Shown here: positions 18,923 through 60,222 of the stretch, piece by piece
How positions within the stretch are numbered: position 1 is the stretch's first letter
Layout: every line of letters starts with the position of its first letter
Source of the DNA: Escherichia coli
GTDB taxonomy: Bacteria > Pseudomonadota > Gammaproteobacteria > Enterobacterales > Enterobacteriaceae
Assembly: GCF_041248615.1 (NCBI RefSeq)
Contig: NZ_CP158426.1
Strand: one strand, 5' to 3'
DNA: 64,000 nucleotides
Notes under the pieces: model-generated
Told to the model about the DNA's origin: nothing
Seen by the model: the letters and a program-made list of their open reading frames with translations, nothing else
Database searches by the model: none
Made by a program: the position numbers and the translations under genes

Positions 18923-19012
18923 GGAGAGATGCCGGAGCGGCTGAACGGACCGGTCTCGAAAACCGGAGTGGGGGCAACTCCACCGGGGGTTCAAATCCCC
19001 CTCTCTCCGCCA
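18923..19012 (+). tRNA. serU: tRNA-Ser (anticodon CGA), serU-like; 3' half is attL
   Basis: GGAGAGATGCCGGAGCGGCTGAACGGACCGGTCTCGAAAACC...GGGGGTTCAAATCCCCCTCTCTCCGCCA; long variable arm; 90 nt. Confidence 0.9.
18951..19012 (+). repeat. attL (3' portion of tRNA-Ser)
   Basis: 62 bp matching 60161-60222 with two substitutions. Confidence 0.8.
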
Positions 19013-19057
19013 AAATTCAATCACTTACACATCATTAAGTCAGTGACAAAAATCACA

Positions 19058-19090
19058 CTTGGAATTACTTGGAATATTTTCTTGGAATAT
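19058..19090. repeat. Three direct CTTGGAAT repeats in the attL arm (putative Int/Xis arm sites)
   Basis: CTTGGAATTACTTGGAATATTTTCTTGGAATATTTTC overlapping the int 3' end. Confidence 0.4.
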
Positions 19091-20090
19091 TTTCAGGTAA
19101 CGGGACATCAAGTGTTGGTGAAACTTTAACCTTCCTGTCATAGATTAGCACTTGCCCTTCGGTTTTGTGACCAGAGAAAAGTTGCTTATCCCGGCTGCTT
19201 CCTTCATAGTCTGAAATTCCTTTCGCCTTCAGATCATGAAAGGTGAAGTCGGTTAAAATACCTGAAATTTTTCCAGCACGATTTCTTGCATCTACCCACA
19301 TTTCGTTAAAGCCTTTGTACATATATCGGTTGCCGTATTGATTGCTGATCACATAGGCAGATTTTGGTAACTGTTTTGCTTTTTCGATCGCTGCCTGTAA
19401 TCGTGGACTCCATGCTTTTATCTGTTTTTTTCCGGTTTTCCCTTGCTGGATGAATATCCCGTCGTTTCCAATCTGTTCCCATTTCAGCGATAACACATCG
19501 GAAACCCTCGCTGCACACAGATAGGCAATTTCCATTGCGATAAAAACAGGAAGAGGTGCAACGCTTAATACTGCCTGGTATTCTTTGTCGGTTACATATC
19601 GTTCGCGGTTTTTGGCCTTGAATTTACTTACACCTGCACATGGGTTAGCCTTCACGTACCCTCGCTCATACCCCCAACTGTAAACACGGGACATACTGCT
19701 TTTTTCATGGTTGGCTTGCGTTTTACTCTGCTCCCCTCTTTTGTCCATGTATCGACGGATGTGTTCTGGTTTTATGGAATCCGCTGGTACCTTACCGAAT
19801 ACGGCAAGCAACTTTTTTTGATGTTGCAGATAATCTTTTTGTGTTCTTGGACTAAGGTCACTGTAATAGGCGCTGGCGAGGAATTTTTCCCACAAGCGAC
19901 CGAATGTCATTGCACGATCGCGATTATTTACAGTTTCCTCATACTTTTTCCATAAAGCAGCTAAACCATCCTTGATGGCGGTTAGTGTGACAGATTCTCT
20001 GGATGTTGGTTTCCATACATAACTATATTTATTTGGGTATACATTTGGAGGTAATTTTTCGTGTTCAGGATTTTTCCTTCGTCTTCCCAT
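19065..20090 (-). CDS. Phage tyrosine integrase
   Basis: 341-aa ORF adjacent to attL; C-terminal catalytic region with conserved R...H..R...Y spacing. Confidence 0.9.
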   Translation of the reverse strand: MGRRRKNPEHEKLPPNVYPNKYSYVWKPTSRESVTLTAIKDGLAALWKKYEETVNNRDRAMTFGRLWEKFLASAYYSDLSPRTQKDYLQHQKKLLAVFGKVPADSIKPEHIRRYMDKRGEQSKTQANHEKSSMSRVYSWGYERGYVKANPCAGVSKFKAKNRERYVTDKEYQAVLSVAPLPVFIAMEIAYLCAARVSDVLSLKWEQIGNDGIFIQQGKTGKKQIKAWSPRLQAAIEKAKQLPKSAYVISNQYGNRYMYKGFNEMWVDARNRAGKISGILTDFTFHDLKAKGISDYEGSSRDKQLFSGHKTEGQVLIYDRKVKVSPTLDVPLPENIPRKYSK

Positions 20091-20293
20091 CAGATCGCAC
20101 CAAAATTCGGCTCTACCTCGCGTGGTGGTAAAGTTTTATTGCAGGTAAATAGATCCCGGCTGACAATCGGTTTGCCACTACGATTGGTATAGAACGGAAG
20201 CCCGTTTTCCATTAACCATTTTCGCTGGTGGCTTGCATATTTGCAGCCCGTTAATATTAGCAATTCATCTTCGGTTAAAAATAAGCTGCTCAT
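20090..20293 (-). CDS. Excisionase-like protein (DUF4224-like)
   Basis: 67-aa ORF upstream of and overlapping int; LTEDELLILTGCKYASHQRKWLMENGLPF pattern. Confidence 0.6.
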   Translation of the reverse strand: MSSLFLTEDELLILTGCKYASHQRKWLMENGLPFYTNRSGKPIVSRDLFTCNKTLPPREVEPNFGAI

Positions 20294-20351
20294 AGCTATA
20301 TCTCATAACCGCCGCTAACTATATACGGTTAGCGGCAATTAGGGTTGAACA

Positions 20352-22793
20352 TTAAAAATCAGCCTGACTCGGGATCAGTTTTTGCCAGATAGCTGAAACG
20401 TATTTTGCCTGGTAACGAGCGTCATCAAGTGCATTATGGCGCTCACCTTCGAATGGAATAGCCGTTCTGGCATCGAAGTCTATGGCTTTCCCCAGCTCAA
20501 CGATTGTGCGTACATCGCGATCGTTGTAGTAACGCCACGGGCAGGGGATCCCCTGCCGTTCGTATGAACGGCGCAAAATCGTGTTGTCGAAGTTGGCTCC
20601 ATTTCCCCAAACCTGAACAAAAAATTCACCGGAGTTTTCGTCGATAAATTCCCGCAATTGTAACAGTGCATCATCTAACGGGATTTCATCGGTCATAATG
20701 GCAGATTGCGCTTCGCGTGATTGCTTAAGCCACCATTTAATGGTGTCCCGATCAATGACTCCGCCAGCAGTTTCCAGATCGATAGTCTTACTAAATTCCG
20801 GTCCCATATCTCCGGTTTGCGGATCGAAAAATATTGCACCTATTGAGATGATCGGGGCATCAGGATTTTTTCCCATGGTTTCAAGGTCGATCATTAGATG
20901 GTCACACGTCCTGCTGGTGGATGTGATTTCGTGATGACCGTTCACCTTAATTGGGTGATCTGCCGTCTCGCCAGTTTTATTATCGCTGGCGTGATGCTGA
21001 TTGCCGCCAGGGTTCTCCTTGTGTGGATGTTCAGCGCCTTCCATTTCCTCCGGATCATTTTCCTGAACTTCAACCTGATTCTCTTCATCGAATGTTTCCT
21101 GGTATGTTGCGTCGCCCATCACCGCGCCACAATCAGGGCAGTTGCCGCCACCGCTCTGACCGCAGGCGGTGCAGACTTTTTCCGGTTCCTGTTGCGCTAC
21201 TGGTTCGGATTGTTTCGTTTCTGGCTCGTTTTGTAACGCATTTGGGCTGTTTTGTTCCGCTTTTTGGTCGTTCCGTTCCGATTCATGCTGGTTCTGGTTC
21301 ACAGAATCGCGAGTCTGGATCCCCTTGACCCATTTCGGATCATTAGGGTCGCTAATCCCCTCAACAAATTCACCACGCGATACAGCAAGTAACTTATCGG
21401 CGTCAGGCTGGCTGATATTGGCTGCCTGCATAATTTTGTTTACTTCGTCAGCGGTGACTTTTACTTGGTTAGCGGAACTCACCTGCGACTGAGCATCCAG
21501 CGACTGCGCGTTCTGGCCATGTTCAGTTGTATCCGGTTCCATTGTTTCAGTTGTTGCCTGTTCACCTGCCATTGCGTCAGATGGTTGTGGTTTTTCTTCT
21601 TCTGTTTCACGCTCAGTAACCACCTCGCGGTTAATTTCTTCCAGGATATCTTTTTCCGGCGTATGCCGGGCAGCTGTGAGAGTTTCCTTGCTGGGGTTCT
21701 CGTGATCAGTTTCCGTCAAATAGGCGTTGATATACCCCTGAAGGCGTCCCGGGTAGTGATAAAATTCAGGGTGTGCGCTTCGGATAAGTGCAAAAATAGC
21801 GGCGCGGGAATAGTCCAGAATACCCGGGGTTGCACGAAGTGCTGCGGACCATTCTTTGAACGGACTTTCTTTGTTCAGGACTACTTCTTTTGCGCGACGA
21901 TAAACGCTGCCCGGAATTTCATAAATATTAAAATCCATCGGAAGTGTGGCTGCTGCAATCTCCACATCCAGTGTGTCGAGGGTGTGTACTAAATTCGGAT
22001 TGCGATCGGTTTTGTTCCCACCGCCAGCATTAGCACCGGAAGCCGTGCGGGTGATGCGTGAAACACGATTTCCTTTCATCCACTCTTTTGTCAGCAGACC
22101 CCGATCAGTGTAGTCAGCGTCCAGGTATGCTTCGAAAAAAGCAGTTATTAGTCCCAGGTCTGAATTACCAGGATTAGGGAAAACTTTGTCAGTGTCACGA
22201 ACCAGTTTGTGGAGGTCGCGAATCTCCAGCGAGTCGAGCAGACTGGTTTTATGCGAAATAGCCAGGGCAGTAACAGCCGGTAGTTCTTCAGCCCGTGCAA
22301 TGTGTAATGCCTGGAGTTCGTCGCGTGAAACGTGCGTTACTGGTTTTTCGCTGCCGTGTTGAGCAAGCCAACGAATGGGCAGTTCCTGACCGGAGACAGG
22401 CAGAAGCATGCTCTCCTCAATCTCAGTCATGTCTTCGCCGTTGATGTTGGTATTGTCAGTGCTGGCTGGTTTGTCCTGAACAGAGGGGGAAGGGCCGATA
22501 AATGTCATTGTGATGCCATCTTTCCCGCCTTTTTCATAGCGGTTGCAGAATTCAGTATCAAACACGCCTTCTGGCGGAAGGTCGTCAACAACGGGCAAAT
22601 TGACGCGGACGGGTTTTTTAAAGTCGTCTTCATCATAATCGTTGTCATCCATTGCGGTAATGCAGCGGGAGATTGCAACAGATAATTTTTTTGCTGTAGT
22701 CCAGTAAAAACCACCTTTAATTCCCAGGCGTTTTCTTACTTTGTCATTTTTTGCTTCGCAATATAGTGCAAATTCTTCTTTATCAGTGCTCAT
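20352..22793 (-). CDS. Large early protein with C-terminal DnaQ-like 3'-5' exonuclease domain (intact YdfE-like)
   Basis: 813-aa ORF; C-terminal MIDLETMG ... WGNGANFD ... HNALDDA (DEDDh motifs); central [16 protein letters not shown] zinc ribbon; acidic low-complexity linker. Confidence 0.7.
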
Positions 22794-22886
22794 TATTGGT
22801 AAACCTCATCACAGATTTAAGGGTGAACAAATCTCTGCCATTGCTGACATATAAGAATGAAACTGGATATTTATTACGGTGCTGTT

Positions 22887-23078
22887 TTAAAATCCTGCCG
22901 GGATTTCGTTATTATCCTGGTGAATAACTTTATCGACCGGATAACAGTTGCCTGGAATTTTCTGTTCGGTTGCTGCTGCCATACATTCCTGCTTTGTTCT
23001 GTGAACACTGACTGCAATATCAACTGGCCCTCCGGAAACAAGAAAAACCGTCAGAATAAGTGCAAATACTGGATTCAT
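22887..23078 (-). CDS. ydfD: YdfD-like small protein (63 aa)
   Basis: Start at MNPVF with AAGGA RBS; hydrophobic N-terminus; 4-bp overlap with dicB stop; position matches the Qin ydfD slot. Confidence 0.5.
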   Translation of the reverse strand: MNPVFALILTVFLVSGGPVDIAVSVHRTKQECMAAATEQKIPGNCYPVDKVIHQDNNEIPAGF

Positions 23079-23263
23079 TGTGCACATCCTTTTGGCATCA
23101 GACGTAAACGGGCCAGCATTGAAACAATGCATACTTTATTTAATAACTCCCGTTCGTGTTTTCTTTTGTTAATGGCATCTTCAGTAAATACAGGATTACT
23201 GATAGTGACACCAATTTCAAAACAACCTTCAGACGTATTAACGTTTGGTAATAACGTTTTCAT
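23075..23263 (-). CDS. dicB: DicB cell-division inhibitor (62 aa)
   Basis: MKTLLPNVNTSEGCFEIGVTISNPVFTEDAINKRKHERELLNKVCIVSMLARLRLMPKGCAQ, close to E. coli DicB as I recall it; GAGGG RBS. Confidence 0.75.
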   Translation of the reverse strand: MKTLLPNVNTSEGCFEIGVTISNPVFTEDAINKRKHERELLNKVCIVSMLARLRLMPKGCAQ

Positions 23264-23432
23264 TATCGCGCCCTCAACAATGAGTTTTGTGATGCGGTGC
23301 CTGGTGCCTCCAGGTGACGTTAACCAGTTAACAATTAACGCCGGATACAGAGAATCCACCCATAACACTGTTTTTGGTTTTAACTGTTCCGCGTGCGCTT
23401 AGCCGCATTCACCGCATCACAAAATTCACTTT

Positions 23433-23490
23433 AAAAAGGGCGGCAGAGCAGTCACGGAGTAAAACTGATACCGCCAAACGTCACCAGAAA
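23433..23490 (-). ncRNA. dicF: DicF small RNA
   Basis: Minus strand reads TTTCTGGTGACGTTTGGCGGTATCAGTTTTACTCCGTGACTGCTCTGCCGCCCTTTTT, matching DicF from memory, with intrinsic terminator; lies between ydfC and dicB. Confidence 0.7.
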
Positions 23491-23830
23491 ATTGATAACA
23501 GAGGGCGTTGCAGCGGGGTTGTCACTTAAGCGTATGGTCAACCTGACAACCCGGTGTCCTCAACGGGGAAGGAATAACCCCGCCATACTTACCGCCGCGC
23601 CATTTCGCGGAGTGCCACAACCGGAAGCGCACGGTCGACGAAAATTTAACGACAGGCTATCTATGAACCAGCTACCTCGCCGTGCGCTTTCGCGTTATGG
23701 TCTGACTTTTCAGGGAAATATCCTTTCAGTAAACTGTCAGTGCCGGATGCTCACCCGTGTCCGGCGCACGCACTCCACCTCACCCGTGGAGAACTCCTTA
23801 ATTACCAACCTTAGCTTCGTTGGTTAGCTA

Positions 23831-24049
23831 TTAACGCGGGTATGTAATCATTCTGGCAATGCTTAATGCCGCTGCTTTTTCCAGATTGGTGATATCCTGC
23901 TCCAGAGCGGACAGATTTTCAGCCTGCTTAGCCCTGGCTTCATTAGCCCATTTCAGATCCTGCGCTGCATTAATTTTCTGGCGCATCCACTCATAAAGTT
24001 CATCATCGGTATAGTCTGGCGCGATTATGACGGGTTCTCGTTTCTGCAT
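23831..24049 (-). CDS. ydfC: YdfC-like protein (72 aa)
   Basis: 72-aa ORF in the expected operon position. Confidence 0.55.
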   Translation of the reverse strand: MQKREPVIIAPDYTDDELYEWMRQKINAAQDLKWANEARAKQAENLSALEQDITNLEKAAALSIARMITYPR

Positions 24050-24078
24050 ACTGATTCCTCGCGGTGCTACTTCGCTTA

Positions 24079-24207
24079 TCAGCCGTTAGATTTTGCCGAG
24101 CTGGAAAGCGCCTGTTTAAACTCACTGAAGCTGAGAGCTTCTTCGCCTTCGGCAAGGTCTTCGAAGTATTCTTCGTAAGCCTTTTCCATGATTGTGTCGA
24201 AATCCAT
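24079..24207 (-). CDS. ydfB: YdfB-like small protein (42 aa)
   Basis: Hand-translated MDFDTIMEKAYEEYFEDLAEGEEALSFSEFKQALSSSAKSNG; too short for the ORF track. Confidence 0.45.
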   Translation of the reverse strand: MDFDTIMEKAYEEYFEDLAEGEEALSFSEFKQALSSSAKSNG

Positions 24208-24208
24208 A

Positions 24209-24364
24209 TCACTCACCTGAGTTTCTTTCCAGCCAGCGACGGGCACCATTTTCGGTTTTAAACGTTTTGCTTTTGGTATACGTCATCGCGGTGAACGTGC
24301 CGTCCTGGTTGGGAAACACGCCGTACACCAGAGATTCGTTGTTGCCAAGATCGATAGTATCCAT
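24209..24364 (-). CDS. ydfA: YdfA-like protein (51 aa)
   Basis: Internal start MDTIDLGNNESLVYGVFPNQDGTFTAMTYTKSKTFKTENGARRWLERNSGE. Confidence 0.55.
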   Translation of the reverse strand: MDTIDLGNNESLVYGVFPNQDGTFTAMTYTKSKTFKTENGARRWLERNSGE

Positions 24365-24550
24365 GCTGACCTCATTTCCCCTTAACGCCGGGGTAGCGGA
24401 ACAAAAACCTGCTGCATAGTTATTAAAGTTGAACCCTGCCGTCATGTTCTTACGCCTCGGGCTGGCTACTTAACCCCTGACCACTGCCTGGTAACTCGAA
24501 GTATTGCCCTGCATTCTGTGGGGCGGGGTGGGTTGGTATGAAAAGAAGGA

Positions 24551-24586
24551 TACCCATAGGTATTTAAAAAGTAAATACCCATGGGT
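24551..24586. promoter_or_regulatory. Paired operator-like palindromes upstream of the early-left operon
   Basis: TACCCATAGGTA (24551-24562) and TACCCATGGGTA (24575-24586), 24 bp apart. Confidence 0.45.
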
Positions 24587-24629
24587 AACTTTTTGCGGTG
24601 TCTTAACTGGTGACTAGTTGTTTGGTGAG

Positions 24630-25049
24630 CTATGATGCGTTTTGTGCTTTCTTTTTACGGATTTCTTCGTAGATCATATTGTAATACTGTTTTTTCTCTT
24701 CAAGAGTTTTTAATAAGTTATCCGCTTCACTTTCTGGCAGTTCGTCTAAGAGATCTAAAAAAATACGTTGTCGTGGCGTTAGAACCCTTGTTTCATAACT
24801 GGAGGCTGTGTTCGTTGATGATGAAACGATACCATCCATCCATCCCCGGGGTAACCCAAAGGACTCTTCGATAATCTCCACCATATCATCAGCGATCCGT
24901 TTTTTTCCCTTTTTCCCCTCTGGGTACAACATTCTTGATACATAAGAAGGCTCGCGCCCGATCTTTCTGGCCACGTTAACCGCTTTACCATCGCATTTCT
25001 CATCACGAATTTTGATGAGTTGCTGTCGTCTAAATTCATATTTGTCCAT
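24630..25049 (-). CDS. Prophage repressor (DicA/RacR-like HTH protein)
   Basis: 139-aa ORF divergent from cro-like gene; HTH AVNVARKIGREPSYVSRML; C-terminal LPESEADNLLKTLEE. Confidence 0.65.
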   Translation of the reverse strand: MDKYEFRRQQLIKIRDEKCDGKAVNVARKIGREPSYVSRMLYPEGKKGKKRIADDMVEIIEESFGLPRGWMDGIVSSSTNTASSYETRVLTPRQRIFLDLLDELPESEADNLLKTLEEKKQYYNMIYEEIRKKKAQNAS

Positions 25050-25149
25050 AGGTAAATAATAGATGCGATTACCGCAAGGTAAACAACCTGTGGGTATTGA
25101 CTTTTGTTTACCTGCGGGTATTCTTTACTGTGTTTACTAAGGAGTAGCT
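25050..25149. promoter_or_regulatory. Divergent immunity promoter/operator region
   Basis: Inverted repeats built on GGTA/TACC half-sites (GGTAAATAATAGATGCGATTACC; AGGTAAACA...TGTTTACCT); TTGACT-16 nt-TATTCT promoter-like; AGGAG RBS before 25150. Confidence 0.5.
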
Positions 25150-25431
25150 ATGGAAGAATTAAGAATATTTCTCAATTCTCTTTCGTCAGATGAACAGCGT
25201 ATGTTTGCATGCGAGTGTGGTACCAGCATCGGTTATCTAAGAAAGGCATTGAGTAAAGGTCAAGTGTTAGGGGCATCGTTATGTGTCCTTATTGAGCGAG
25301 CCAGTAATGGTGAAGTTACACGTCAGCAACTAAGGCCTTTTGATTGGATGAATATTTGGCCCGAGCTGGAAGATACCAAAACGTTAACACAACCACTTTC
25401 TAGGAGCTTGATTCATGAAAATCAAGCATGA
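25150..25431 (+). CDS. Cro-like HTH regulator (YdaS-family-like)
   Basis: 93-aa ORF, first rightward gene; HTH-like CGTSIGYLRKALSKGQ. Confidence 0.55.
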   Translation: MEELRIFLNSLSSDEQRMFACECGTSIGYLRKALSKGQVLGASLCVLIERASNGEVTRQQLRPFDWMNIWPELEDTKTLTQPLSRSLIHENQA

Positions 25432-25840
25432 ACACATCCGCATGGCGATGAATGCCTGGGCGCATCCGGACGGTGAAAAAGTTCCGGCAGCTGAAATAAC
25501 CAGGGCTTATTTTGAACTGGGTATGACGTTCCCAGAACTGTATGACGACAGCCATCCGGAAGCCCTGGCTCGCAATACCCAGAAAATTTTCCGCTGGGTA
25601 GAGAAAGACACCCCTGATGCAGTTGAAAAAATTCAGGCGTTGTTACCAGCGATCGAAAAGGCAATGCCACCTTTGCTGGTGGCCAGAATGCGCAGCCACA
25701 GTTCAGCTTATTTTCGGGAACTGGTGGAGACGCGGGAGCGACTGGTGAGAGACGCTGATGATTTTGTCGCAGTGGCAATCGCCGGTTTCAATCAGATGAA
25801 CCGTGGTGGCCCGGCAGGAAATGCTGTGGCAGTACATTGA
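25415..25840 (+). CDS. YdaT-like protein (cII-position gene)
   Basis: 141-aa ORF beginning MKIKHEHI, which I associate with YdaT. Confidence 0.5.
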   Translation: MKIKHEHIRMAMNAWAHPDGEKVPAAEITRAYFELGMTFPELYDDSHPEALARNTQKIFRWVEKDTPDAVEKIQALLPAIEKAMPPLLVARMRSHSSAYFRELVETRERLVRDADDFVAVAIAGFNQMNRGGPAGNAVAVH

Positions 25841-27000
25841 CTGACAATAGCCATATCGAATCGCTTCCGGCAACTCGTGAGGAAAAAGATTCGGTATCAG
25901 AAGAGGTGAGTATGGCTAACGCCTGGCTCAGATTATGGCATGACATGCCAAATGACCCTAAGTGGCGAACAATTGCCAGGGTGTCAGGGCAGCCAATTGC
26001 AACAGTGATGGCAGTGTATATCCACCTCCTGGTGAGCGCGTCACGAAATGTCACGCGAGGTCACATTGATGTCACGACAGAAGATTTGGCAAGTGCGCTC
26101 GACGTGACAGAAGAGGTAATTGATTCAATTTTGCAGACGATGCAGGGGCGGGTACTTGATGGTGATTTAATCACTGGATGGGAAAAACGCCAGGTGCTTA
26201 AAGAGGACAACGGCAATATTTCGCAAACCGCAAAATCTCCTGCAGAGCGCAAGAGGGCGCAGCGAGAGAGGGAAAGAAAGCGGGAACAAAATGGCGATTG
26301 TCACGGCGCGTCACGAAATGTCACGCACATGTCACGACGAGTCACGACAGATAAAGATACAGATAAAGATACAGATAAAGATACAGATACAGATCAAGAA
26401 GATCAAAACACTATGGTCCATGGCGTAAAAAACGCCACGAACCAGGCAGGGGATGTTCAGACCGTCAATCTTGGTCAGCCAGCAGGCACGACACCGGAAG
26501 CCGATTCAGCGTATGCGCTGAAAGCCGATTCGGGCGCTGTGCAGCAGGTGATGACCGCAAGGCCGGAGCAATCACACCAACTGCAGCAGCCTGAAGCCGA
26601 TTCCGCCATTCAGCGGGAAGCCGATCGGGTAGTCCCGGAAAACACCGGGCAGCCTGTGGGACGAGTAGATTATCCGGATGTGTTCGAACAGGTCTGGCGG
26701 GAATACCCGTTGCGTGCTGGGGCAAACCCGAAGAAATCCGCTTTCAGTGCTTGGAAGGCCAGATTACGCGAGGGGGTGCCACCAGAGGCCATGCTGGATG
26801 GTGTGAGGCGTTACGCAAGATACCTGGCGGCTACCGGGAAAACGGGAACGGAATTTGTTCAGCGAGCGACGACGTTTTTTGGACCGGACCGGAATTTTGA
26901 AAACCCCTGGTTTCTCCCGGTAAGCAGTACGAACAACCAGCGTTGTGTGAATCATATTTCTGAACCGGATACCGAAATTCCACCGGGCTTCAGGGGGTAA
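25837..27000 (+). CDS. Replication initiator (O-like N-terminus, DUF1376/YdaU-like C-terminus)
   Basis: 387-aa ORF; N-terminal ANAWLRLWHDMPNDPKWRTIARVSG; iteron arrays inside the coding sequence; DKDT repeats. Confidence 0.7.
   Translation: MTDNSHIESLPATREEKDSVSEEVSMANAWLRLWHDMPNDPKWRTIARVSGQPIATVMAVYIHLLVSASRNVTRGHIDVTTEDLASALDVTEEVIDSILQTMQGRVLDGDLITGWEKRQVLKEDNGNISQTAKSPAERKRAQRERERKREQNGDCHGASRNVTHMSRRVTTDKDTDKDTDKDTDTDQEDQNTMVHGVKNATNQAGDVQTVNLGQPAGTTPEADSAYALKADSGAVQQVMTARPEQSHQLQQPEADSAIQREADRVVPENTGQPVGRVDYPDVFEQVWREYPLRAGANPKKSAFSAWKARLREGVPPEAMLDGVRRYARYLAATGKTGTEFVQRATTFFGPDRNFENPWFLPVSSTNNQRCVNHISEPDTEIPPGFRG
26040..26385. repeat. Phage origin: two GTCACG iteron arrays plus 3x12-bp AT-rich repeats
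   Basis: GTCACG at 26040, 26050, 26060 (GTCACA), 26071 and at 26300, 26310, 26320, 26331, 26341 (10-11 bp phasing); GATAAAGATACA x3 at 26350-26385. Confidence 0.65.
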
Positions 27001-27040
27001 GTGTGTATTTCTGGTCATGAGGTAATTTTCAGGAGGGCTT

Positions 27041-27463
27041 GTGGCAAAAGTTTTTACACAAGAAGAGCGGGAAAAAATTAAAGGGCAGGTTCTTGAACTC
27101 GTACGCCAGAGTGGGCGCGAGACGTTACGACAACTGGAAGCTAAAACTGGGGCAACAAGATATCTGATGAGCGTTCTGGCCAGAGAGCTGGTTGCCAGTG
27201 GCGATGTATACAACTCTGGTTACGGGTTATTCCCGTCTGAACAGGCGCGTAAGGACTGGCAAAATGCCCGTAAAAAGCTCTCAAGGGCAAAGCTGAAGAA
27301 ACCATCTGCGGTTGATCCGGACCTTATCTGGTCATTACCTGATGGAGAAATACGTCGTTACGACAGGCGTCATAATATAATTTGTACTGAGTGTCGTAAA
27401 AGCGAAGTTATGCAGCGGATATTGTCGTTTTATCAGGGGGATGTTCGGTATTTTTTGAAGTGA
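27041..27463 (+). CDS. Hypothetical protein, possible winged-helix
   Basis: 140-aa ORF after the replication gene; C-terminal CxxC; function unclear. Confidence 0.45.
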   Translation: MAKVFTQEEREKIKGQVLELVRQSGRETLRQLEAKTGATRYLMSVLARELVASGDVYNSGYGLFPSEQARKDWQNARKKLSRAKLKKPSAVDPDLIWSLPDGEIRRYDRRHNIICTECRKSEVMQRILSFYQGDVRYFLK

Positions 27464-27701
27464 CGAGATTAAAGTGCATTAGTTCAGATGTAAATTGACA
27501 TTTTGTGGCACAGGGTAGAGCTAGCGTGGTTGTCCGCTTTGTGCCAAAAGCAGACATTGATAACATTGAGATATGTTAATTTATAGGGAGCAGCTCAAGG
27601 CCCACTGGAACTTCCAGTTTTTGCCCCTGAAACCGTTCCCAATGAGCACTTCCATCTGAAGACTGCGCAGTCTTAGTTTTCGTTGCCTTTAGTTTATCCC
27701 T

Positions 27702-50956: not shown

Positions 50957-51501
50957 AAACGGGGGCCGAAGCCATCCGGGCGCTGGCCATGCAGATCCCG
51001 GCGTTTCGTCAGAAACTGAGTGACGGCTGGTATCAGGTACGGATTGCCGGGCGTGATGCAGGTGAAACCGAATTGTCTGCCCGTCTTAATGAGCCGCTGG
51101 CAAATGGTGCCGTGATCCACATCGTTCCGCGTCTGGAGGGGGCCAAAAGTGGCGGTGTGTTTCAGGCGGTGCTGGGTGCGGCGCTGATTGCGGTGGCATG
51201 GTGGAACCCTGTAGGCTGGCTGGGGGCCGCGGCTGTATCGGGTATGTATGCAGCAGGGGCCAGTATGATCCTGGGTGGTGTGGCGCAGATGCTGGCACCG
51301 AAAGCCCGGACGCCCACGGCAGCCAGTACAGATAACGGCAAACAGAACACGTATTTCTCGTCACTGGATAACATGGTTGCCCAGGGCAATGTTCTGCCCG
51401 TTCTGTACGGTGAAATGCGTGTGGGGTCGCGGGTGGTATCTCAGGAGATCAGCACGGCAGATGAAGGTGATGGTGGTCAGGTTGTGGTGATTGGTCGCTG
51501 A
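50854..51501 (+). CDS. I: Tail assembly protein I
   Basis: MAATHTLPLASPGMARICLYGNLQRFGRRIDLRVKTGAEAIRALA... close to lambda I as I recall it. Confidence 0.9.
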   Translation: MAATHTLPLASPGMARICLYGNLQRFGRRIDLRVKTGAEAIRALAMQIPAFRQKLSDGWYQVRIAGRDAGETELSARLNEPLANGAVIHIVPRLEGAKSGGVFQAVLGAALIAVAWWNPVGWLGAAAVSGMYAAGASMILGGVAQMLAPKARTPTAASTDNGKQNTYFSSLDNMVAQGNVLPVLYGEMRVGSRVVSQEISTADEGDGGQVVVIGR

Positions 51502-51520
51502 TGAAAAATGTTTTATGTGA

Positions 51521-51547
51521 AACCGCCTGCGGGCGGTTTTGTCGTTT
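51521..51547 (+). terminator. Hairpin plus T-run upstream of J
   Basis: ACCGCC-TGCG-GGCGGT then TTTTGTCGTTT. Confidence 0.4.
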
Positions 51548-51561
51548 ATGGAGCGTGAGGA

Positions 51562-54500
51562 ATGGGTAAAGGCAGCAGTAAGGGGCATACCCCGCGCGAA
51601 GCGAAGGACAACCTGAAGTCCACGCAGTTGCTGAGTGTGATCGATGCCATCAGCGAAGGGCCGATTGACGGTCCGGTGGATGGATTAAAAAGCGTGCTGC
51701 TGAACAGTACGCCAGTGCTGGACAGTGAGGGGAATACCAATATCTCCGGTGTCACGGTGGTGTTCCGGGCAGGTGAGCAGGAGCAGACACCGCCGGAGGG
51801 ATTTGAATCCTCCGGCTCCGAGACGGTGCTGGGTACGGAAGTGAAATACGACACGCCGATCACCCGGACCATCACGTCGGCAAACATTGACCGACTGCGT
51901 TTTACCTTCGGCGTGCAGGCACTGGTGGAAACCACCTCAAAGGGGGACAGGAATCCGTCGGAAGTCCGCCTGCTGGTTCAGATACAACGTAACGGTGGCT
52001 GGGTGACGGAAAAAGACATCACCATTAAAGGCAAAACCACCTCACAGTATCTGGCCTCGGTGGTGGTGGATAACCTGCCGCCGCGCCCGTTTAATATCCG
52101 GATGCGCAGGATGACGCCGGACAGCACCACAGACCAGCTGCAGAACAAAACGCTCTGGTCGTCATACACCGAAATTATCGATGTGAAACAGTGCTACCCG
52201 AACACGGCACTGGTCGGCGTGCAGGTGGATTCGGAGCAGTTCGGCAGCCAGCAGGTGAGCCGTAATTATCATCTGCGCGGGCGTATTCTGCAGGTGCCGT
52301 CGAATTATAATCCGCAGACGCGGCAATACAGCGGTATCTGGGACGGAACGTTTAAACCGGCATACAGCAACAACATGGCATGGTGTCTGTGGGATATGCT
52401 GACCCACCCGCGCTACGGCATGGGGAAACGTCTTGGTGCGGCGGATGTGGACAAATGGGCGCTGTATGTCATCGGCCAGTATTGCGACCAGTCGGTGCCG
52501 GACGGTTTTGGCGGCACGGAGCCGCGCATCACCTGTAACGCTTACCTGACCACACAGCGTAAGGCGTGGGATGTGCTCAGTGATTTCTGCTCGGCGATGC
52601 GCTGTATGCCGGTATGGAACGGGCAGACGCTGACGTTCGTGCAGGACCGACCGTCGGATAAGGTGTGGACCTATAACCGCAGTAATGTGGTGATGCCGGA
52701 TGATGGCGCGCCGTTCCGCTACAGTTTCAGCGCCCTGAAGGACCGCCATAATGCCGTTGAGGTGAACTGGATTGACCCGGATAACGGCTGGGAAACGGCA
52801 ACAGAGCTTGTGGAGGACACGCAGGCCATTGCCCGTTACGGTCGTAATGTCACGAAGATGGATGCCTTTGGCTGTACCAGTCGGGGGCAGGCGCACCGCG
52901 CCGGGCTGTGGCTGATTAAAACGGAACTGCTGGAAACGCAGACCGTGGACTTCAGCGTGGGTGCGGAAGGGCTTCGCCATGTACCGGGGGATGTCATTGA
53001 AATCTGCGATGATGACTATGCGGGTATCAGCACCGGCGGGCGCGTGCTGGCGGTGAACAGCCAGACCCGGACGCTGACGCTCGACCGTGAAATCACGCTG
53101 CCATCCTCCGGTATCACGCTGATAAGCCTGGTTGACGGAAGTGGCAATCCGGTCAGCGTGGAGGTTCAGTCCGTCACCGACGGCGTGAAGGTAAAAGTGA
53201 GCCGTGTTCCTGACGGTGTTGCTGAATACAGCGTATGGGGGCTGAAGCTGCCGACGCTGCGCCAGCGACTGTTCCGCTGCGTGAGTATCCGTGAGAACGA
53301 CGACGGCACGTATGCCATCACTGCCGTGCAGCATGTACCGGAGAAAGAAGCCATCGTGGATAACGGGGCGTACTTTGACGGCGACCAGAGCGGAACGGTG
53401 AACGGTGTCACGCCGCCCGCGGTGCAGCACCTGACTGCAGAAGTCACCGCAGACAGCGGGGAATACCAGGTGCTGGCGCGCTGGGACACGCCGAAGGTGG
53501 TGAAGGGGGTGAGCTTTATGCTTCGCCTGACCGTGGCAGCGGATGACGGCAGTGAGCGGCTGGTCAGCACGGCCAGGACGACGGAAACCACATACCGCTT
53601 CAGGCAACTGGCGCTGGGGCGTTACACGCTGACGGTCCGGGCGGTAAATGCGTGGGGACAGCAGGGCGATCCGGCATCGGTATCGTTCCGGATTGCCGCA
53701 CCGGCAGCGCCGTCGCGGATTGAGCTGACGCCGGGCTATTTTCAGATAACTGCCACGCCGCATCTTGCGGTTTATGATCCGACGGTACAGTTTGAGTTCT
53801 GGTTCTCGGAAAAGCGGATTGCGGATATCAGGCAGGTTGAAGCCAGCGCGCGTTATCTTGGTACGGCGCTGTACTGGATAGCCGCCAGTATCAATATCAA
53901 ACCGGGCCATGATTATTATTTTTACATTCGCAGTGTGAACACCGTTGGCAAATCGGCATTCGTGGAGGCTGTTGGCCAGCCGAGTGATGATGCATCCGGC
54001 TATCTGGATTTTTTCAAAGGCGAGATAGGGAAAACCCATCTGGCTCAGGAGCTGTGGACGCAGATTGATAACGGTCAGCTTGCGCCTGACCTGGCTGAAA
54101 TCAGGACGTCCATTACGGATGTCAGCAATGAAGTCACGCAGACCGTCAATAAGAAACTGGAAGACCAGAGTGCGGCAATTCAGCAGATACAGAAGGTTCA
54201 GGTTGATACAAATAATAACCTGAACAGCATGTGGGCTGTGAAGCTGCAGCAGATGCAGGACGGACGCCTTTATATCGCGGGTATTGGTGCCGGTATTGAG
54301 AATACCCCTGACGGCATGCAGAGTCAGGTGCTGCTGGCGGCGGACAGGATTGCGATGGTTAATCCTGCGAATGGCAACACAAAGCCGATGTTTGTTGGTC
54401 AGGGCGATCAGATATTCATGAACGAAGTGTTCCTGAAATATCTGACGGCTCCCACCATTACCAGCGGCGGTAATCCTCCGGCATTTTCCCTGACACCGGA

Positions 54501-55041
54501 CGGGCGGCTGACGGCGAAAAATGCCGATATCAGCGGTAACGTGAATGCGAACTCCGGGACGCTCAACAACGTCACGATTAACGAGAACTGCCGGGTTCTG
54601 GGAAAACTGTCCGCGAACCAGATTGAAGGCGATCTCGTTAAAACAGTGGGCAAAGCTTTCCCCCGGGACTCCCGTGCACCGGAACGCTGGCCATCAGGGA
54701 CCATTACCGTCAGGATTTATGACGATCAGCCGTTTGACCGGCAGATTGTTATTCCGGCGGTGGCATTCAGCGGCGCTAAGCATGAGAGAGAGCATACTGA
54801 TATTTACTCCTCATGCCGTCTGATAGTGCGGAAAAACGGTGCTGAAATTTATAACCGTACCGCGCTGGATAATACGCTGATTTACAGTGGCGTTATTGAT
54901 ATGCCTGCCGGTCACGGTCACATGACGCTGGAGTTTTCGGTGTCAGCATGGCTGGTAAATGACTGGTATCCCACAGCAAGTATCAGCGATTTGCTGGTTG
55001 TGGTGATGAAGAAAGCCACCGCAGGCATCAGTATCAGCTGA
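51562..55041 (+). CDS. J: Host specificity protein J (central tail fibre)
   Basis: 1159-aa ORF, lambda J-like position and length. Confidence 0.9.
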
Positions 55042-55060
55042 ATTTTATAACCCCAATACG

Positions 55061-55087
55061 GGCGTCAGAAATGACGCCTTTTTTATT
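55061..55087 (+). terminator. Intrinsic terminator after J
   Basis: GGCGTCA-GAAA-TGACGCC then TTTTTT. Confidence 0.55.
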
Positions 55088-55108
55088 GCAGAAAAGCGAG
55101 AGGTAATT

Positions 55109-55708
55109 ATGCGTAAATTATGTGCTGTTATTCTGTCCGCAGTAGTCTGGCTGGTTGCCGCTGGTACGCCAGCGAGCGCAGCAGAGCATCAGTCCACACT
55201 AAGCGCCGGGTATCTTCAGACCCATACTGATATGCCAGGCAGTGATGACCTGAAGGGCATTAACGTGAAATACCGTTATGAATTTACGGACACGCTGGGG
55301 CTGGTGACGTCATTCAGTTATGCCAATGCCAAAGATGAGCAAAAAACGCATTACAGCGATACCCGCTGGCATGAAGATTCAGTGCGTAACCGCTGGTTCA
55401 GCATGATGGCGGGGCCATCTGTACGCGTGAATGAATGGTTCAGTGCTTATGCGATGGCAGGTGTGGCTTACAGCCGTGTTTCGACGTTCTCCGGGGATTA
55501 TCTCCGCGTAACTGACAACAAGGGGAAAACGCACGATGTGCTGACCGGAAGTGATGACGGTCGCCACAGCAACACGTCTCTGGCGTGGGGAGCTGGCGTG
55601 CAGTTTAACCCGACCGAATCCGTGGCCATTGATATTGCTTATGAAGGCTCCGGCAGTGGTGACTGGCGCACTGACGGTTTCATCGTGGGTGTCGGTTATA
55701 AATTCTGA
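55109..55708 (+). CDS. lom: Lom/Ail-family outer-membrane protein
   Basis: 199-aa ORF with signal peptide and 8-strand beta-barrel pattern, C-terminal GVGYKF. Confidence 0.85.
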   Translation: MRKLCAVILSAVVWLVAAGTPASAAEHQSTLSAGYLQTHTDMPGSDDLKGINVKYRYEFTDTLGLVTSFSYANAKDEQKTHYSDTRWHEDSVRNRWFSMMAGPSVRVNEWFSAYAMAGVAYSRVSTFSGDYLRVTDNKGKTHDVLTGSDDGRHSNTSLAWGAGVQFNPTESVAIDIAYEGSGSGDWRTDGFIVGVGYKF

Positions 55709-55734
55709 TTAGCCAGGTAACACAGTGTTATGAC

Positions 55735-55761
55735 AGCCCGCCGGTTCAGGCGGGCTTTTTT
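55735..55761 (+). terminator. Intrinsic terminator after lom
   Basis: AGCCCGCC-GGTTCA-GGCGGGCT then TTTTTT. Confidence 0.55.
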
Positions 55762-55766
55762 GTGGA

Positions 55767-58151
55767 GTGGATATGGCAGCAGTAAAAATCTCAGGTGTGC
55801 TGAAAGATGGTGCGGGAAAACCAATACAGAACTGCACTATTCAACTGAAGGCAAAGCGTAACAGCACCACGGTACTGGTGAACACGGTGGCTTCTGAAAA
55901 TCCGGATGAAGCCGGACGTTACAGCATGGATGTTGAGTATGGCCAGTACAGCGTCACCCTGCTGGTTGAAGGTTTTCCGCCTTCACATGCCGGGACCATT
56001 ACCGTCTATGAAGGTTCCAGACCAGGTACGCTGAATGATTTTCTCGGTGCCATGACGGAAGATGATGTCATGCCGGAGGCATTGCGTCGTTTTGAGGCAA
56101 TGGTGGAAGAAGCGGCACGCAACGCCGAAGCCGCCTCTCAGAGCGCAGCGGCGGCAAAGAAATCCGAAACTGCAGCGGCATCATCGAAGAACGCGGCGAA
56201 AACCTCAGAAACGAATGCAGCTAACAGCGCACAGGCGGCAGCGACCTCACAGACTGCATCGGCAAACTCCGCGACAGCAGCCAAAAAATCAGAAACCAAC
56301 GCGAAAAACAGCGAGACAGCCGCAAAGACGAGCGAAACCAACGCAAAGTCCAGCCAGACGGCAGCGAAGACCAGCGAAACGAATGCCAAAGCCAGTGAAA
56401 CTGCGGCAAAAAACAGCCAGGTTGCAGCAGCCCAAAGCGAGAGCGCGGCAGCCGGTTCTGCGACTTCAGCAGCCGGATCAGCAACTGCTGCGGCTAACAG
56501 CCAGAAAGCTGCGAAGACGAGTGAAACTAACGCAAAGTCCAGCCAGACGGCAGCGAAGACCAGCGAAACGAATGCCAAAGCCAGTGAAACTGCGGCGAAA
56601 AACAGTCAGGATGCTGCAGCCCAAAGCGAGAGTGCCGCAGCTGGTTCTGCAAGTGCGGCGGCTTCTTCTGCCACTGCATCAGCCAACAGTCAAAAAGCTG
56701 CAAAAACCAGTGAAACCAACGCAAAGGCGAGCGAGACTGCGGCGGCTAACTCGGCGAAAGCATCCGCTGCAAGCCAGACGGCTGCAAAAGCAAGTGAAGA
56801 CGCAGCCAGAGAGTATGCAAGCCAGGCTGCGGAGCCGTATAAACAAGTTTTGCAGCCGCTTCCCGATGTGTGGATACCGTTTAACGATTCACTGGATATG
56901 ATTACGGGCTTTTCGCCATCATATAAAAAGATTGTTATTGGCGACGACGAAATAACGATGCCTGGTGACAAGGTTGTTAAGTTTAAACGCGCATCGAAAG
57001 CAACCTATATTAATAAATCTGGTGTACTGACAGAGGCTGCCATTGACGAGCCGCGATTTGAACGTGATGGCCTGCTTATTGAGGGGCAAAGAACTAATCT
57101 TCTGCTTAATTCAACAAATCCATCTAAATGGAATAAGTCAGGCAATCTGGAACTCACAGAAATATCCACGGATTCTTTTAATTTTACTTATGGGAGATTT
57201 ACTGTAAAAGATACTCTTATTGATCAGACAAGTGCGATTAATATCGTAACGGTTTCTGGCAGTAAAGGATTTGATGTCACAGGTGATGAAAAATATGTGA
57301 CCATTTCATGCCGTGTCAGAAGTGATGTTGAAAATATAAGGTGTCGTTTAAGATTTGAACATCATGATGGTTCTACTTACACTTTTTTGGGAGATGCTTA
57401 CCTCAATTTATCAACACTTGTAATTGATAAGACTGGTGGTGCAGCAAATCGTATTATTGCAAAGGCTGTAAAAGATGAGGCTACTGGTTGGATTTTCTAT
57501 CAGGCTACAATTAATGCACTAGATACAGAGAGCATGATTGGTGCGATGGTTCAATATGCTCCAGTAAAAGGTTCAGGCACAGCATCTGGAGACTATCTGG
57601 ATATCGCAACTCCACAAGTGGAAGGTGGATCAAGTGCTTCGTCATTTATTGTAACTGATATAATTGCAAGCACTCGCGCAAGCGATATGGTGACAGTCCC
57701 AATCAAGAATAACCTTTATAATCTTCCTTTTACAGTTCTTTGTGAGGTACATAAGAACTGGTATAAAACGCCAAATGCAGCACCGCGTGTTTTTGATACC
57801 GGCGGTCATCAAACCGGAGCGGCTATTATTCTTGGCTTCGGTCGTTCAACAGATTACGACGGATTTCCTTATTGCGATATAGGTTTGGCTAACAGACGGG
57901 TAAACGAAAACGCATCGCTTGAAAAAATGGTTATGGGGATGCGTGTAAAGTCAGATCAGTCTACGTGCTCAGTAAGTAACGGGCGTATATCCAGCGAAAA
58001 GAAAGCCACATGGTCCTATATTCAGAACACCGCAATTATCCGTATTGGAGGCCAGACTACAGCCGGGTTGCGTCATTTATTTGGTCATGTCAGGAATTTC
58101 AGAATATGGCACAAGGCATTGACTGATGCTCAGGTGGGGGAGTCAATCTAA
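55767..58151 (+). CDS. stf: Side tail fibre (Stf-like) with Ala-rich repeat region
   Basis: N-terminus MAAVKISGVLKDGAGKPIQNCTIQLKAKRNSTTVLVNTV close to lambda Stf; variable C-terminal half. Confidence 0.8.
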   Translation: MDMAAVKISGVLKDGAGKPIQNCTIQLKAKRNSTTVLVNTVASENPDEAGRYSMDVEYGQYSVTLLVEGFPPSHAGTITVYEGSRPGTLNDFLGAMTEDDVMPEALRRFEAMVEEAARNAEAASQSAAAAKKSETAAASSKNAAKTSETNAANSAQAAATSQTASANSATAAKKSETNAKNSETAAKTSETNAKSSQTAAKTSETNAKASETAAKNSQVAAAQSESAAAGSATSAAGSATAAANSQKAAKTSETNAKSSQTAAKTSETNAKASETAAKNSQDAAAQSESAAAGSASAAASSATASANSQKAAKTSETNAKASETAAANSAKASAASQTAAKASEDAAREYASQAAEPYKQVLQPLPDVWIPFNDSLDMITGFSPSYKKIVIGDDEITMPGDKVVKFKRASKATYINKSGVLTEAAIDEPRFERDGLLIEGQRTNLLLNSTNPSKWNKSGNLELTEISTDSFNFTYGRFTVKDTLIDQTSAINIVTVSGSKGFDVTGDEKYVTISCRVRSDVENIRCRLRFEHHDGSTYTFLGDAYLNLSTLVIDKTGGAANRIIAKAVKDEATGWIFYQATINALDTESMIGAMVQYAPVKGSGTASGDYLDIATPQVEGGSSASSFIVTDIIASTRASDMVTVPIKNNLYNLPFTVLCEVHKNWYKTPNAAPRVFDTGGHQTGAAIILGFGRSTDYDGFPYCDIGLANRRVNENASLEKMVMGMRVKSDQSTCSVSNGRISSEKKATWSYIQNTAIIRIGGQTTAGLRHLFGHVRNFRIWHKALTDAQVGESI
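56322..56700 (+). repeat. Tandem duplication (~2 x 189 bp) inside stf
   Basis: Near-identical units starting at 56322 and 56511, encoding KTSETNAKSSQTAAKTSETNAKASETAAKNSQ.AAAQSESAAAGSA. Confidence 0.6.
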
Positions 58152-58432
58152 TGAAAGATTTAACACTCAAATTTGCCGACAGGGCCGACTTTTCGGCCTT
58201 TATGGAGAGTGCCGGCTATTATGATGACGAGTCGATGCAGGATGATATTCTTATTGACGTGATAGGTAACGTGTACAAAGAAACCGGAGAACTTACCGAA
58301 GATGGCGAGCCGGTATGTGTTAAGGAAGACGGATATTTTGTAAACGTGCGCATCATTAATGATGCAAAAAAATCGTCAATATTCGATGAATACGTGGTTG
58401 CTGTTGAGCATCAACTTCGTGGCTGGATGTGA
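58151..58432 (+). CDS. Hypothetical protein (93 aa), coupled to stf
   Basis: ATG overlaps stf stop; acidic protein; unlike known Tfa chaperones to my recollection. Confidence 0.4.
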   Translation: MKDLTLKFADRADFSAFMESAGYYDDESMQDDILIDVIGNVYKETGELTEDGEPVCVKEDGYFVNVRIINDAKKSSIFDEYVVAVEHQLRGWM

Positions 58433-58441
58433 GGAAGAAAA

Positions 58442-59482
58442 ATGGCTACATCGACAGTAATTCCTGAAGACATCAAAACGCTAAAATCCGACGTTAGCAA
58501 ATTAAAAAACGATCAAGGAAGCTACGCAACAAAATCATATGTAGACAATAAAACAACATGGAATAGTTATTGCAATGTAATCTATGATCAAAAGACATTG
58601 CCGACCACTGGAACTATATTTAGCGGTAAGATTCACTTGTCAAATAAGACAGGAGAAACCGAAAACGCTTATAGTGAGATGTACACTAGAAAAAATATTG
58701 ACGGTACAAAAGATACAATGACAAGGATTGTCACACACAATGGAACAAAAGGTATCTTTTGGGATTTTAGCGATCTTTACGGTGGAACATTAATTTTTCC
58801 AGGCAGTGATGGTTACCTTAAGATGGGGAACTGTCTCATGTCGTATGGTGTGCGGGGAAGTAACGCGCTTATTAAGTTTGACTGCACAGACACATTACAA
58901 ATCAAATATGCCAATCATGGGTCAACCATGACAATCAACACACAGGGAACCGCTCATTCTGGCGCTACTACTAGTTTGTGGGGTAACTCTACCCGTCCGG
59001 TTGTATATGAAGTTGGTGCTGATGGTGGCGCTTATATGTTCTATGCGCAGAAAAATACCGATAACACCTATATGTTAAGCGTTAATGGTGCATGTCATGC
59101 CACCGCATTTAACCAGCATTCCGACCGGGATCTGAAAGACAACATTCAGGTGATCGATAATGCAACCGACCGCATCCGTAAAATGAACGGCTATACATAC
59201 ACGCTTAAAGAAAACGGTATGCCCTATGCTGGTGTCATTGCACAGGAAGCTCTGGAAGCAATCCCAGAAGTTGTAGGTTCCGCAATGAAATATCAGGACG
59301 GTGCAAGCGGATCGGAAGGTGAAGAAGGTGAACGTTATTACACAGTAGATTATTCTGGTGTTACTGGCTTGCTTGTTCAGGTAGCCAGAGAGTCAGACGA
59401 CAGAATAACAGCACTGGAAGAAGAAAACGCAGAATTAAGACAAAGATTATCTGCAATTGAGGCGGCGCTTGCGTCTAAATAA
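58442..59482 (+). CDS. Tail fibre/tailspike-like protein with C-terminal intramolecular chaperone (S74-like) domain
   Basis: C-terminal DRDLKDNIQVIDNATDRIRKMNGYTYTLKENGMPYAGVIAQEALEAIPEVV...RITALEEENAELRQRL. Confidence 0.65.
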   Translation: MATSTVIPEDIKTLKSDVSKLKNDQGSYATKSYVDNKTTWNSYCNVIYDQKTLPTTGTIFSGKIHLSNKTGETENAYSEMYTRKNIDGTKDTMTRIVTHNGTKGIFWDFSDLYGGTLIFPGSDGYLKMGNCLMSYGVRGSNALIKFDCTDTLQIKYANHGSTMTINTQGTAHSGATTSLWGNSTRPVVYEVGADGGAYMFYAQKNTDNTYMLSVNGACHATAFNQHSDRDLKDNIQVIDNATDRIRKMNGYTYTLKENGMPYAGVIAQEALEAIPEVVGSAMKYQDGASGSEGEEGERYYTVDYSGVTGLLVQVARESDDRITALEEENAELRQRLSAIEAALASK

Positions 59483-59488
59483 TATCAA

Positions 59489-59511
59489 GGGGCCGAGCGC
59501 CCCGTTTTATT
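59489..59511 (+). terminator. Intrinsic terminator after tail fibre gene
   Basis: GGGGC-CGAGC-GCCCC then GTTTTATT. Confidence 0.45.
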
Positions 59512-59812
59512 GGGTAGGATGAAAATGGATATAACACCTTTCCTTCATGCGCTTTGTGCTGTGGCTGCGCAGCTACTGATTGGTCTTTTTACCGGGAACT
59601 GGGCTTACGGGGCGATAGCCGGTTGTACGTTCTTCATTGCGCGTGAACACACCCAGGCAGAATATCGCTGGATTGAAATGTTTGGGCATGGCAAGAGGAT
59701 TAACATGCCGTGGTGGGGCGGTTTTGATCCGCGCGTGTGGGATGTGGCAAGCCTGATGGATTTTGCTGTGCCGGTGGTGGCGTGTCTGCTGATCTGGATG
59801 TTGATCCGTTAA
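59510..59812 (+). CDS. Small membrane protein at prophage right end
   Basis: 100-aa ORF with 2-3 hydrophobic segments; last ORF before attR. Confidence 0.4.
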   Translation: MGRMKMDITPFLHALCAVAAQLLIGLFTGNWAYGAIAGCTFFIAREHTQAEYRWIEMFGHGKRINMPWWGGFDPRVWDVASLMDFAVPVVACLLIWMLIR

Positions 59813-60160
59813 ATATAAAAAGTAAAAAGCCGCAGTAACTTGTCATGATAGGATACTGCGGCTGGCTGGTTAACTTTCGATAGTGCGAGTATTGAATGAT
59901 TTCCAGCCGTTACCGATTTTATATAACTGCAGTGGAATTATTCAACACACAGGCAAAACGGAATAAGCTGAGAAAAAAGCGTGCTTACCCAATCTGGGGT
60001 AAATCACGTCTGAATGACACCTGAAAACAGGTGGTGGCCTCAAGAAGGCTTGGAATATTCTTCTTTAATGTTATGTAATTTATTGATTTTTCGTGTACGA
60101 TTTTAAGACATTTATTCCAAGAAAAGTTTTTAACTCTTTGATTTTTCGACTCTGTATCAT

Positions 60161-60222
60161 CGGTCTCGAAAACCGGAGTAGGGGCAACTCTACCGGGGGT
60201 TCAAATCCCCCTCTCTCCGCCA
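60161..60222 (+). repeat. attR (displaced 3' fragment of tRNA-Ser)
   Basis: 62 bp matching attL/tRNA 3' half with two substitutions (GAGTAGGGG...CTCTACC versus GAGTGGGGG...CTCCACC). Confidence 0.8.

Follow-up and report, generated by a model that had tools for sequence, protein, structure and literature searches.

Compensated base-pair difference between the attachment repeats of an Sp14-type prophage at serU in Escherichia coli

In a 64,000-nucleotide stretch of the Escherichia coli contig NZ_CP158426.1 (assembly GCF_041248615.1; the whole stretch is called the window below), a lambdoid prophage sits in the tRNA-Ser(CGA) gene serU and is bracketed by two nearly identical copies of the 3' part of that gene. 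The locus raises the question of which copy is the original chromosomal one, which was brought by the phage, and what the difference between them says about the integration event. We conclude, with a probability of roughly 0.93, that an Sp14-type lambdoid prophage integrated into serU in the manner of phage lambda and that its own copy, distinguished by a G-C pair in the variable arm, replaced the 3' part of the host gene. The boundaries of the prophage are now exact, and the serU tRNA of this strain is a host-phage chimera.

The attachment repeats and the serU gene

The left (attL) and right (attR) attachment sites share a direct repeat of 62 bp that is identical at 60 positions, and no other long-range repeat in the window brackets the region. 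The block corresponds to tRNA positions 29-90. At attL it belongs to an intact tRNA gene, which was called by both ARAGORN and PGAP. The two mismatches fall at tRNA positions 48 (18970 G, 60180 A) and 59 (18981 C, 60191 T). When either version is folded with RNAfold, these positions are partners in the cloverleaf and make up the third base pair of the long variable-arm stem. The folding energy was -42.6 kcal/mol for the intact tRNA with the G-C pair and -40.6 kcal/mol for the tRNA with the A-U pair that we rebuilt from the displaced copy. An initial annotation of this DNA had described the repeats at these positions and had called the G-to-A and C-to-T changes compensatory; both descriptions were borne out. 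Scans for promoters and terminators around both junctions gave nothing above the shuffled expectation.

Chromosomal and phage-borne serU alleles

We compared the locus with 5426 complete E. coli genomes, using an empty-site probe composed of the left flank, the 5' part of the tRNA, the attR copy, and the right flank. This reconstructed empty site was contiguous in 3856 of the genomes, in one of them at 100% identity. The full 90-nucleotide serU with A-T is found letter for letter in 4161 records, K-12 BW25113 among them, which identifies the attR copy as the allele that is common on the chromosome. Exact matches to the full-length G-C version were found in 1178 records; among the matches listed, each of these records contains two or three serU-like places, and O157:H7 is represented several times.

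The phage side of the comparison came from a pattern scan of IMG/VR for the junction of P arm, core, and P' arm. A contiguous attP consisting of P arm, core, P' arm, and int was present in two independent contigs, one from a metagenome and the other a 43.7-kb isolate contig. Both have G-C in the core, an adjoining int of 341 amino acids that is 99% identical, and the same five CTTGGAAT repeats. Published data on the prophage Sp14 of O157 Sakai agree with this: its circle was found after mitomycin C treatment and the attP was sequenced (Asadulghani et al. 2009, PMC2669165). In Fig. S5 of that paper, taken from machine-read text in which a few letters were dropped, the two variable bases are G...C in attP and at the junction with the intact tRNA, and A...T at the displaced junction. 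The authors show these sequences without comment on the mismatches or their pairing, so that the compensated pair is apparently an uncommented detail. The excision experiment by polymerase chain reaction that the initial annotation had proposed is thus already published for Sp14 (PMC2669165). It has also been published that the gene interrupted by integration is made complete by the attP site (PMC12884075).

Both natural forms of the site therefore exist, the empty attB in the 3856 genomes and the free attP in the two IMG/VR contigs and the Sp14 circle. The initial annotation had proposed that the 3' half of the intact tRNA is phage-supplied, that attR is the original chromosomal 3' end, and that the repeats mark the prophage boundaries. 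The G-C alleles of the attP sequences support the first of these, the A-T matches and empty sites the second, and the comparison with empty sites and attP together fixes the boundaries. These data support a chimeric serU with a chromosomal 5' part and a phage-supplied 3' part that comprises at least positions 48-90 and includes G48-C59.

Several records that resemble a serU attP were rejected. ON470583 and ON470580 are the best-matching "phage" records, but they are prophage excerpts that include asnT, mtfA, and the full serU, and the preprint linked to them concerns prophages located in clinical isolates; we did not count them as independent attP evidence. In ev099, mEp332, and PhiR70_1, which are phages with lambda Int itself, 278 bp of E. 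coli chromosomal flank come after the P arm and core, which makes the site a fossil attR rather than an attP.

The G-C allele also occurs outside lysogens. A probe consisting of the G-C core and the chromosomal right flank matched 104-108 E. coli records (~2%) at 99% identity or more, mostly at prophage-free sites. The best 60 of these matches were all 100% identical and comprised 56 full tRNAs joined to the flank and 4 attR fragments. SCU-115 is among the records examined that have G-C at the chromosomal flank. Two others, KBN10P04869 and O99:H6 CU42ET-1, are annotated with mtfA-serU-zinT and no insert, and their right flanks differ by 3.3%. A few of the records instead represent attR fragments belonging to other prophages, such as one that carries cdt. 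The initial annotation had expected serU of prophage-free strains to match attR and had regarded a match to attL as evidence against its proposal. Most prophage-free sites do match attR, and a minority of about 108 records has the attL version. This minority does not overturn the assignment in the present genome, because here the chromosomal-side copy is A-T and attP is G-C.

Beyond E. coli, a full tRNA with G-C was found in only 3 of 100,044 species representatives, namely a Pluralibacter metagenome-assembled genome, Enterobacillus tribolii, and Entomohabitans teleogrylli, and in all three P'-arm-like DNA follows the tRNA. Pluralibacter and Enterobacillus additionally retain a C-terminal remnant of int (…VLVYDRKVKVSPTL…) beside serU. 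The phage-donated half of the tRNA thus appears to have outlived the element in these three genera.

Among the alternatives, the one that survives best concerns where the G-C allele arose. It could be a bacterial serU allele that the phage lineage acquired, for instance when excision from a G-C host proceeded by homologous rather than site-specific recombination, in which case the compensatory change would have evolved in the host tRNA gene and not in the phage copy. The G-C tRNAs at unoccupied E. coli sites fit this idea, as does the flank divergence between two such strains; furthermore, the attP of the true phages KpF5 and Chris1 is A-T, which means that G-C is not fixed in the element family. 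On the other hand, the rarity of the full G-C tRNA among species representatives argues for a phage origin, since each of the three cases is followed by P'-arm-like DNA and two of them by int remnants, and many empty G-C sites in E. coli appear to come from clonal strains, whose genome sizes and coordinates are alike. We therefore regard a bacterial origin as possible but unlikely.

On another reading, serU phages might act as vectors of lasting allele replacement, with a phage-made G-C allele staying as the host serU after loss of the prophage. We consider the chances of this to be about even. The route would be homologous recombination between the att repeats on the 3' side of the variant pair. 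If true, such replacement would account both for the roughly 108 G-C flank records and for the three genera with decayed P'-arm or int remnants. The data overall suggest that alleles of the variable-arm pair move between phages and hosts, possibly in either direction.

The fossil attR mentioned above illustrates traffic from host to phage. In the free lambda-Int phages ev099 (LR597635, ~24370-24904), mEp332, and PhiR70_1 it spans 535 bp, matches window positions 59966-60500, and is made up of 195 bp of P arm, a host-type A-T tRNA fragment, and the 278 bp of chromosomal flank, followed by an AraC-family regulator and insertion sequence fragments. A similar module with the AraC gene lies inside another prophage of EDL933. 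The arrangement looks like a lambda-bio-style capture that has since been passed on.

The reverse assignment, in which the attL copy with G-C is native and the A-T fragment at attR was brought by the phage, would require a crossover on the 3' side of the variant pair. The prophage-free minority with G-C could be cited in its favor. Yet G-C is found in attP both in the IMG/VR contigs and in the published Sp14 sequence, A-T is the allele of 4161 records including K-12, and the attR copy runs on into the chromosomal flank exactly as empty sites do, which leaves this assignment very improbable. The same holds for the view that the two substitutions are compensatory by coincidence. With only two substitutions the sample is small; in simulations with two random substitutions in the block, however, a single pair was changed with Watson-Crick pairing kept with P = 0.0025 (0.0035 if G-U pairs were counted). 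Of the RNAfold single mutants, the one with A-C misfolds and the G-U intermediate keeps the cloverleaf. The compensated pair is real and no chance pattern. Finally, mutation of both bases in this strain after integration, which would make them uninformative about the phage copy, has no specific support and can be dismissed, given that the same two bases recur in 1178 records, in attP contigs of unrelated samples, and in O157:H7.

Recombination proteins, arm-type sites, and the proposed strand exchange

The int product matched Pfam PF00589 above the cut-off (1.7e-11) and the PHROG integrase family, and it aligned with lambda Int (PDB 1z1b) over residues 1-313 (E=1e-12). As the homology begins at residue 1 (MGRRR...LPPN.Y), the N-terminal arm-binding region is present. 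Of the catalytic set R-K-H-R-H/W-Y, Arg-I, Lys, His, His, and Tyr (LIYDRK) are found; Arg-II, which is R311 in lambda, is replaced by Lys (FHDLKAKG, 19150-19170). The adjacent reading frame encodes a putative excisionase (Xis), which would be the recombination directionality factor. NCBIfam gave no family-level name for either Int or Xis. The Xis of Sp14 has been considered probably non-functional, and circles were detected nonetheless (PMC2669165).

The sequence CTTGGAAT occurs six times in the window, and five of the copies lie within ~115 bp of the identity block. The expected number is 3.0 per 64 kb, and the Poisson probability of at least five in 2 x 180 bp is ~1e-11. Three copies stand in tandem in the P' arm, where the initial annotation had already seen them; the attP contigs and the O157 prophage have the same three. 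Two more, which that annotation lacked, lie in the P arm in opposite orientations (60049 on the plus strand, 60114 on the minus strand), so that there are five arm-type repeats in all. Int is predicted to bind these repeats. Similarity between the two ends of the prophage continues past the 62-bp block: directly after CCA, the chromosomal flank of E. coli and every phage P' arm have a T.TCAA..ACTTA pattern in common, and in the window 11 of 15 positions are alike between 19013-19027 and 60223-60240. It may be a relic of the origin of attP or of an older integration.

From these elements we propose that the Sp14-type prophage entered serU by lambda-style site-specific recombination. The phage attP would consist of a 62-bp copy of tRNA positions 29-90 flanked by five arm-type Int sites, two in P and three in P', with int and xis adjoining the P' arm. 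Int would exchange strands within the anticodon stem-loop. As a result, the expressed tRNA would keep the chromosomal promoter and 5' part and receive its 3' part from the phage, while the original 3' part would stay behind at the distal prophage end, reduced to a fragment of 62 bp. Compared with the common E. coli allele, the phage copy would alter both members of one variable-arm pair from A-U to G-C and leave the stem paired; the chimeric tRNA should thus be functional.

The alleles restrict the site of exchange. Because attL has the phage alleles, attR the chromosomal ones, and the excised attP again G-C, strand exchange should occur 5' of tRNA position 48, which bounds the crossover to 19 bp (18951-18969). 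This interval covers the anticodon hairpin, in which stem sequences CCGGT (18950-18954) and ACCGG (18962-18966) enclose the loop CTCGAAA (18955-18961). This 5-bp inverted repeat around 7 nucleotides has the geometry that would be expected of core-type sites around an overlap region of 6-8 bp.

Some observations weigh against the proposed integration event. G-C occurs at unoccupied sites in ~2% of E. coli records and is hence not exclusively linked to the prophage. Arg-II of Int is replaced by Lys, a residue conserved at this position in KpF5 Int and Chris1 Int, both from isolated phages. In addition, PGAP flags int (window 19040-20090) as a frameshifted pseudogene. This flag is probably an annotation artefact, since the attP-bearing contigs have the same 341-amino-acid open reading frame and homologues end in C-terminal tails of varying length; 24 residues separate the catalytic Tyr from the stop. 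As the end of int is overlapped by the arm-type repeats, a change in repeat number would alter the C-terminal tail, which may explain the flag.

The compensated pair is useful as a natural marker. It tells the origin of each att half, bounds the crossover to the anticodon stem-loop, and can reveal earlier lysogeny where serU is now free of prophage. Roughly one in five complete E. coli genomes (1178 of ~5400 records) has the same chimeric serU; because O157:H7 has been sampled so heavily, this share is an overestimate. The mechanism itself is textbook knowledge and the prophage type is known, so the understanding of tRNA-targeting integrases is unchanged; to a specialist the compensated pair is unsurprising, and the feature is ordinary and well explained.

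Prophage body, neighbourhood, and related systems

Coordinates of all features are collected in Table 1. The prophage contains, in order, int-xis, an exonuclease gene, dicB, ydfABC, and a regulatory and replication region. Next come an FRG-domain gene, hokD, RusA, Q, and four tRNA genes, and then lysis genes, HNH-terminase, an HK97-type head, the tail, J, Lom, and tail fibres. The FRG-domain protein has 444 amino acids and is encoded on the opposite strand in the early region (27702-29036), with hokD and dicB also present; it is possibly a moron or a defence gene. The four phage-borne tRNA genes clustered downstream of Q (33401-33710) are one with the anticodon CAT, which is Met according to ARAGORN and Ile according to PGAP, and Lys-TTT, Thr-TGT, and Gly-TCC. 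The tail-fibre gene at 55767-58151 contains nested tandem repeats at 56265-56744 with a periodicity of 21 nucleotides and two 189-nucleotide units that are 84% identical.

Table 1 Features of the serU locus and of loci compared with it. Positions are those of the window unless another organism is named.
Feature	Position	Strand	Basis
serU, tRNA-Ser(CGA), intact, chimera supported	18923..19012	+	ARAGORN; RNAfold; allele counts; attP contigs
attL copy of 62-bp identity block; variants 18970 G, 18981 C	18951..19012	+	
attR copy, displaced original chromosomal serU 3' part; 60180 A, 60191 T	60161..60222	+	
Interval predicted to hold the strand-exchange site, anticodon stem-loop	18951..18969	+	Segregation of single-nucleotide polymorphisms in attL/attR/attP; Sp14 attP G-C
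int, 341-aa lambda Int-family tyrosine recombinase, N-terminal arm-binding region	19065..20090	-	Pfam, PDB 1z1b, PHROG, alignment
Putative excisionase (recombination directionality factor), 67 aa, DUF4224	20090..20293	-	Pfam DUF4224 1.9e-15; phrog_1266 'excisionase' 3e-21
Three tandem arm-type repeats CTTGGAAT(A/T), P' arm, at 19058, 19068, 19081	19058..19090	+	Overlap last codons and stop of int
Arm-type repeat CTTGGAAT, P arm	60049..60056	+	Conserved in attP contigs
Arm-type repeat CTTGGAAT, P arm, inverted orientation	60114..60121	-	Conserved in attP contigs
Lambdoid prophage body, ~41.1 kb	19013..60160	.	PGAP annotation, NZ_LT599825.1
mtfA, chromosomal left flank	18032..18829	-	PGAP annotation
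zinT, chromosomal right flank, adjoins serU in prophage-free genomes	60891..61541	-	PGAP annotation
G-C serU with decayed P' arm, Pluralibacter	11581-11846		
G-C serU with decayed P' arm, Enterobacillus	3060-3394		
G-C serU with decayed P' arm, Entomohabitans	~2600-2740		

A second integrated element occupies positions 1-17931 of the window at the neighbouring tRNA-Asn gene (17856-17931, minus strand). It contains genes for a 423-amino-acid integrase (16423-17694), porins, an iron-type ABC transporter, and VirB-type type IV secretion, and looks like an integrative conjugative element.

That serU is a hot spot of insertion for both prophages and islands is documented (PMC7067040, PMC8065619, PMC7074111). 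In other E. coli genomes of the empty-site comparison, matches at the serU junction begin not at tRNA position 29 but at 20 or 77, indicating that several unrelated integrases use different sublocations of the gene.

The closest known relative is the Sakai prophage Sp14, which sits at serU (PMC8190617). Sp14 and the present prophage share the serU site, the boundary of the 62-bp block, and the G-C/A-T difference between the junctions (PMC2669165). For a detailed comparison we used the serU prophage of O157:H7 strain PV15-279, which was taken as Sp14-type. Its Int is 97% identical to the one described here, the tRNA and P' arm are identical at 200 of 200 positions with the three repeats included, and a DUF4224 gene lies upstream of int in both. 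In contrast to the uninterrupted int of the present prophage, that of PV15-279 is split by IS1203, and the cargo and late regions of the Sp14-type prophages differ. Lambdoid phages are mosaic. The prophage is a member of the Sp14-type serU prophages.

Phage lambda itself resembles the system in that the two Ints are homologous from end to end, N-terminal arm-binding domain included, and in that int and xis adjoin attP. The arm sites of lambda, P1 and P2 and P'1-3, are mirrored by the layout of two plus three found here. Lambda differs in its target, which is the gal-bio intergenic attB and not a tRNA gene, and in the length of the identity block, which is 15 bp compared to 62 bp. The present system also has another arm-site sequence, Lys in place of Arg-II, and an Xis of the DUF4224 family.

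The Klebsiella phage KpF5 and the Citrobacter phage Chris1 are isolated phages with an attP of the serU type. They have the same block boundary, Ints that are 57-59% identical, Lys at Arg-II, and an int gene adjoining attP, whereas their true attP carries the A-T allele and the P' arm of KpF5 has a repeat motif of the GAGAAAA type.

Elements that integrate into tRNA genes with a crossover in the anticodon loop, and the sublocation classes to which they belong, are reportedly treated by Reiter (1989), Campbell, and Williams (2002). The serU prophage follows this pattern: the block starts in the anticodon stem and reaches the CCA end, Int adjoins the restored 3' end of the tRNA, and the displaced fragment is distal. 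No difference from these anticodon-loop integrators is essential; what the present prophage adds is the compensated base-pair difference inside the block.

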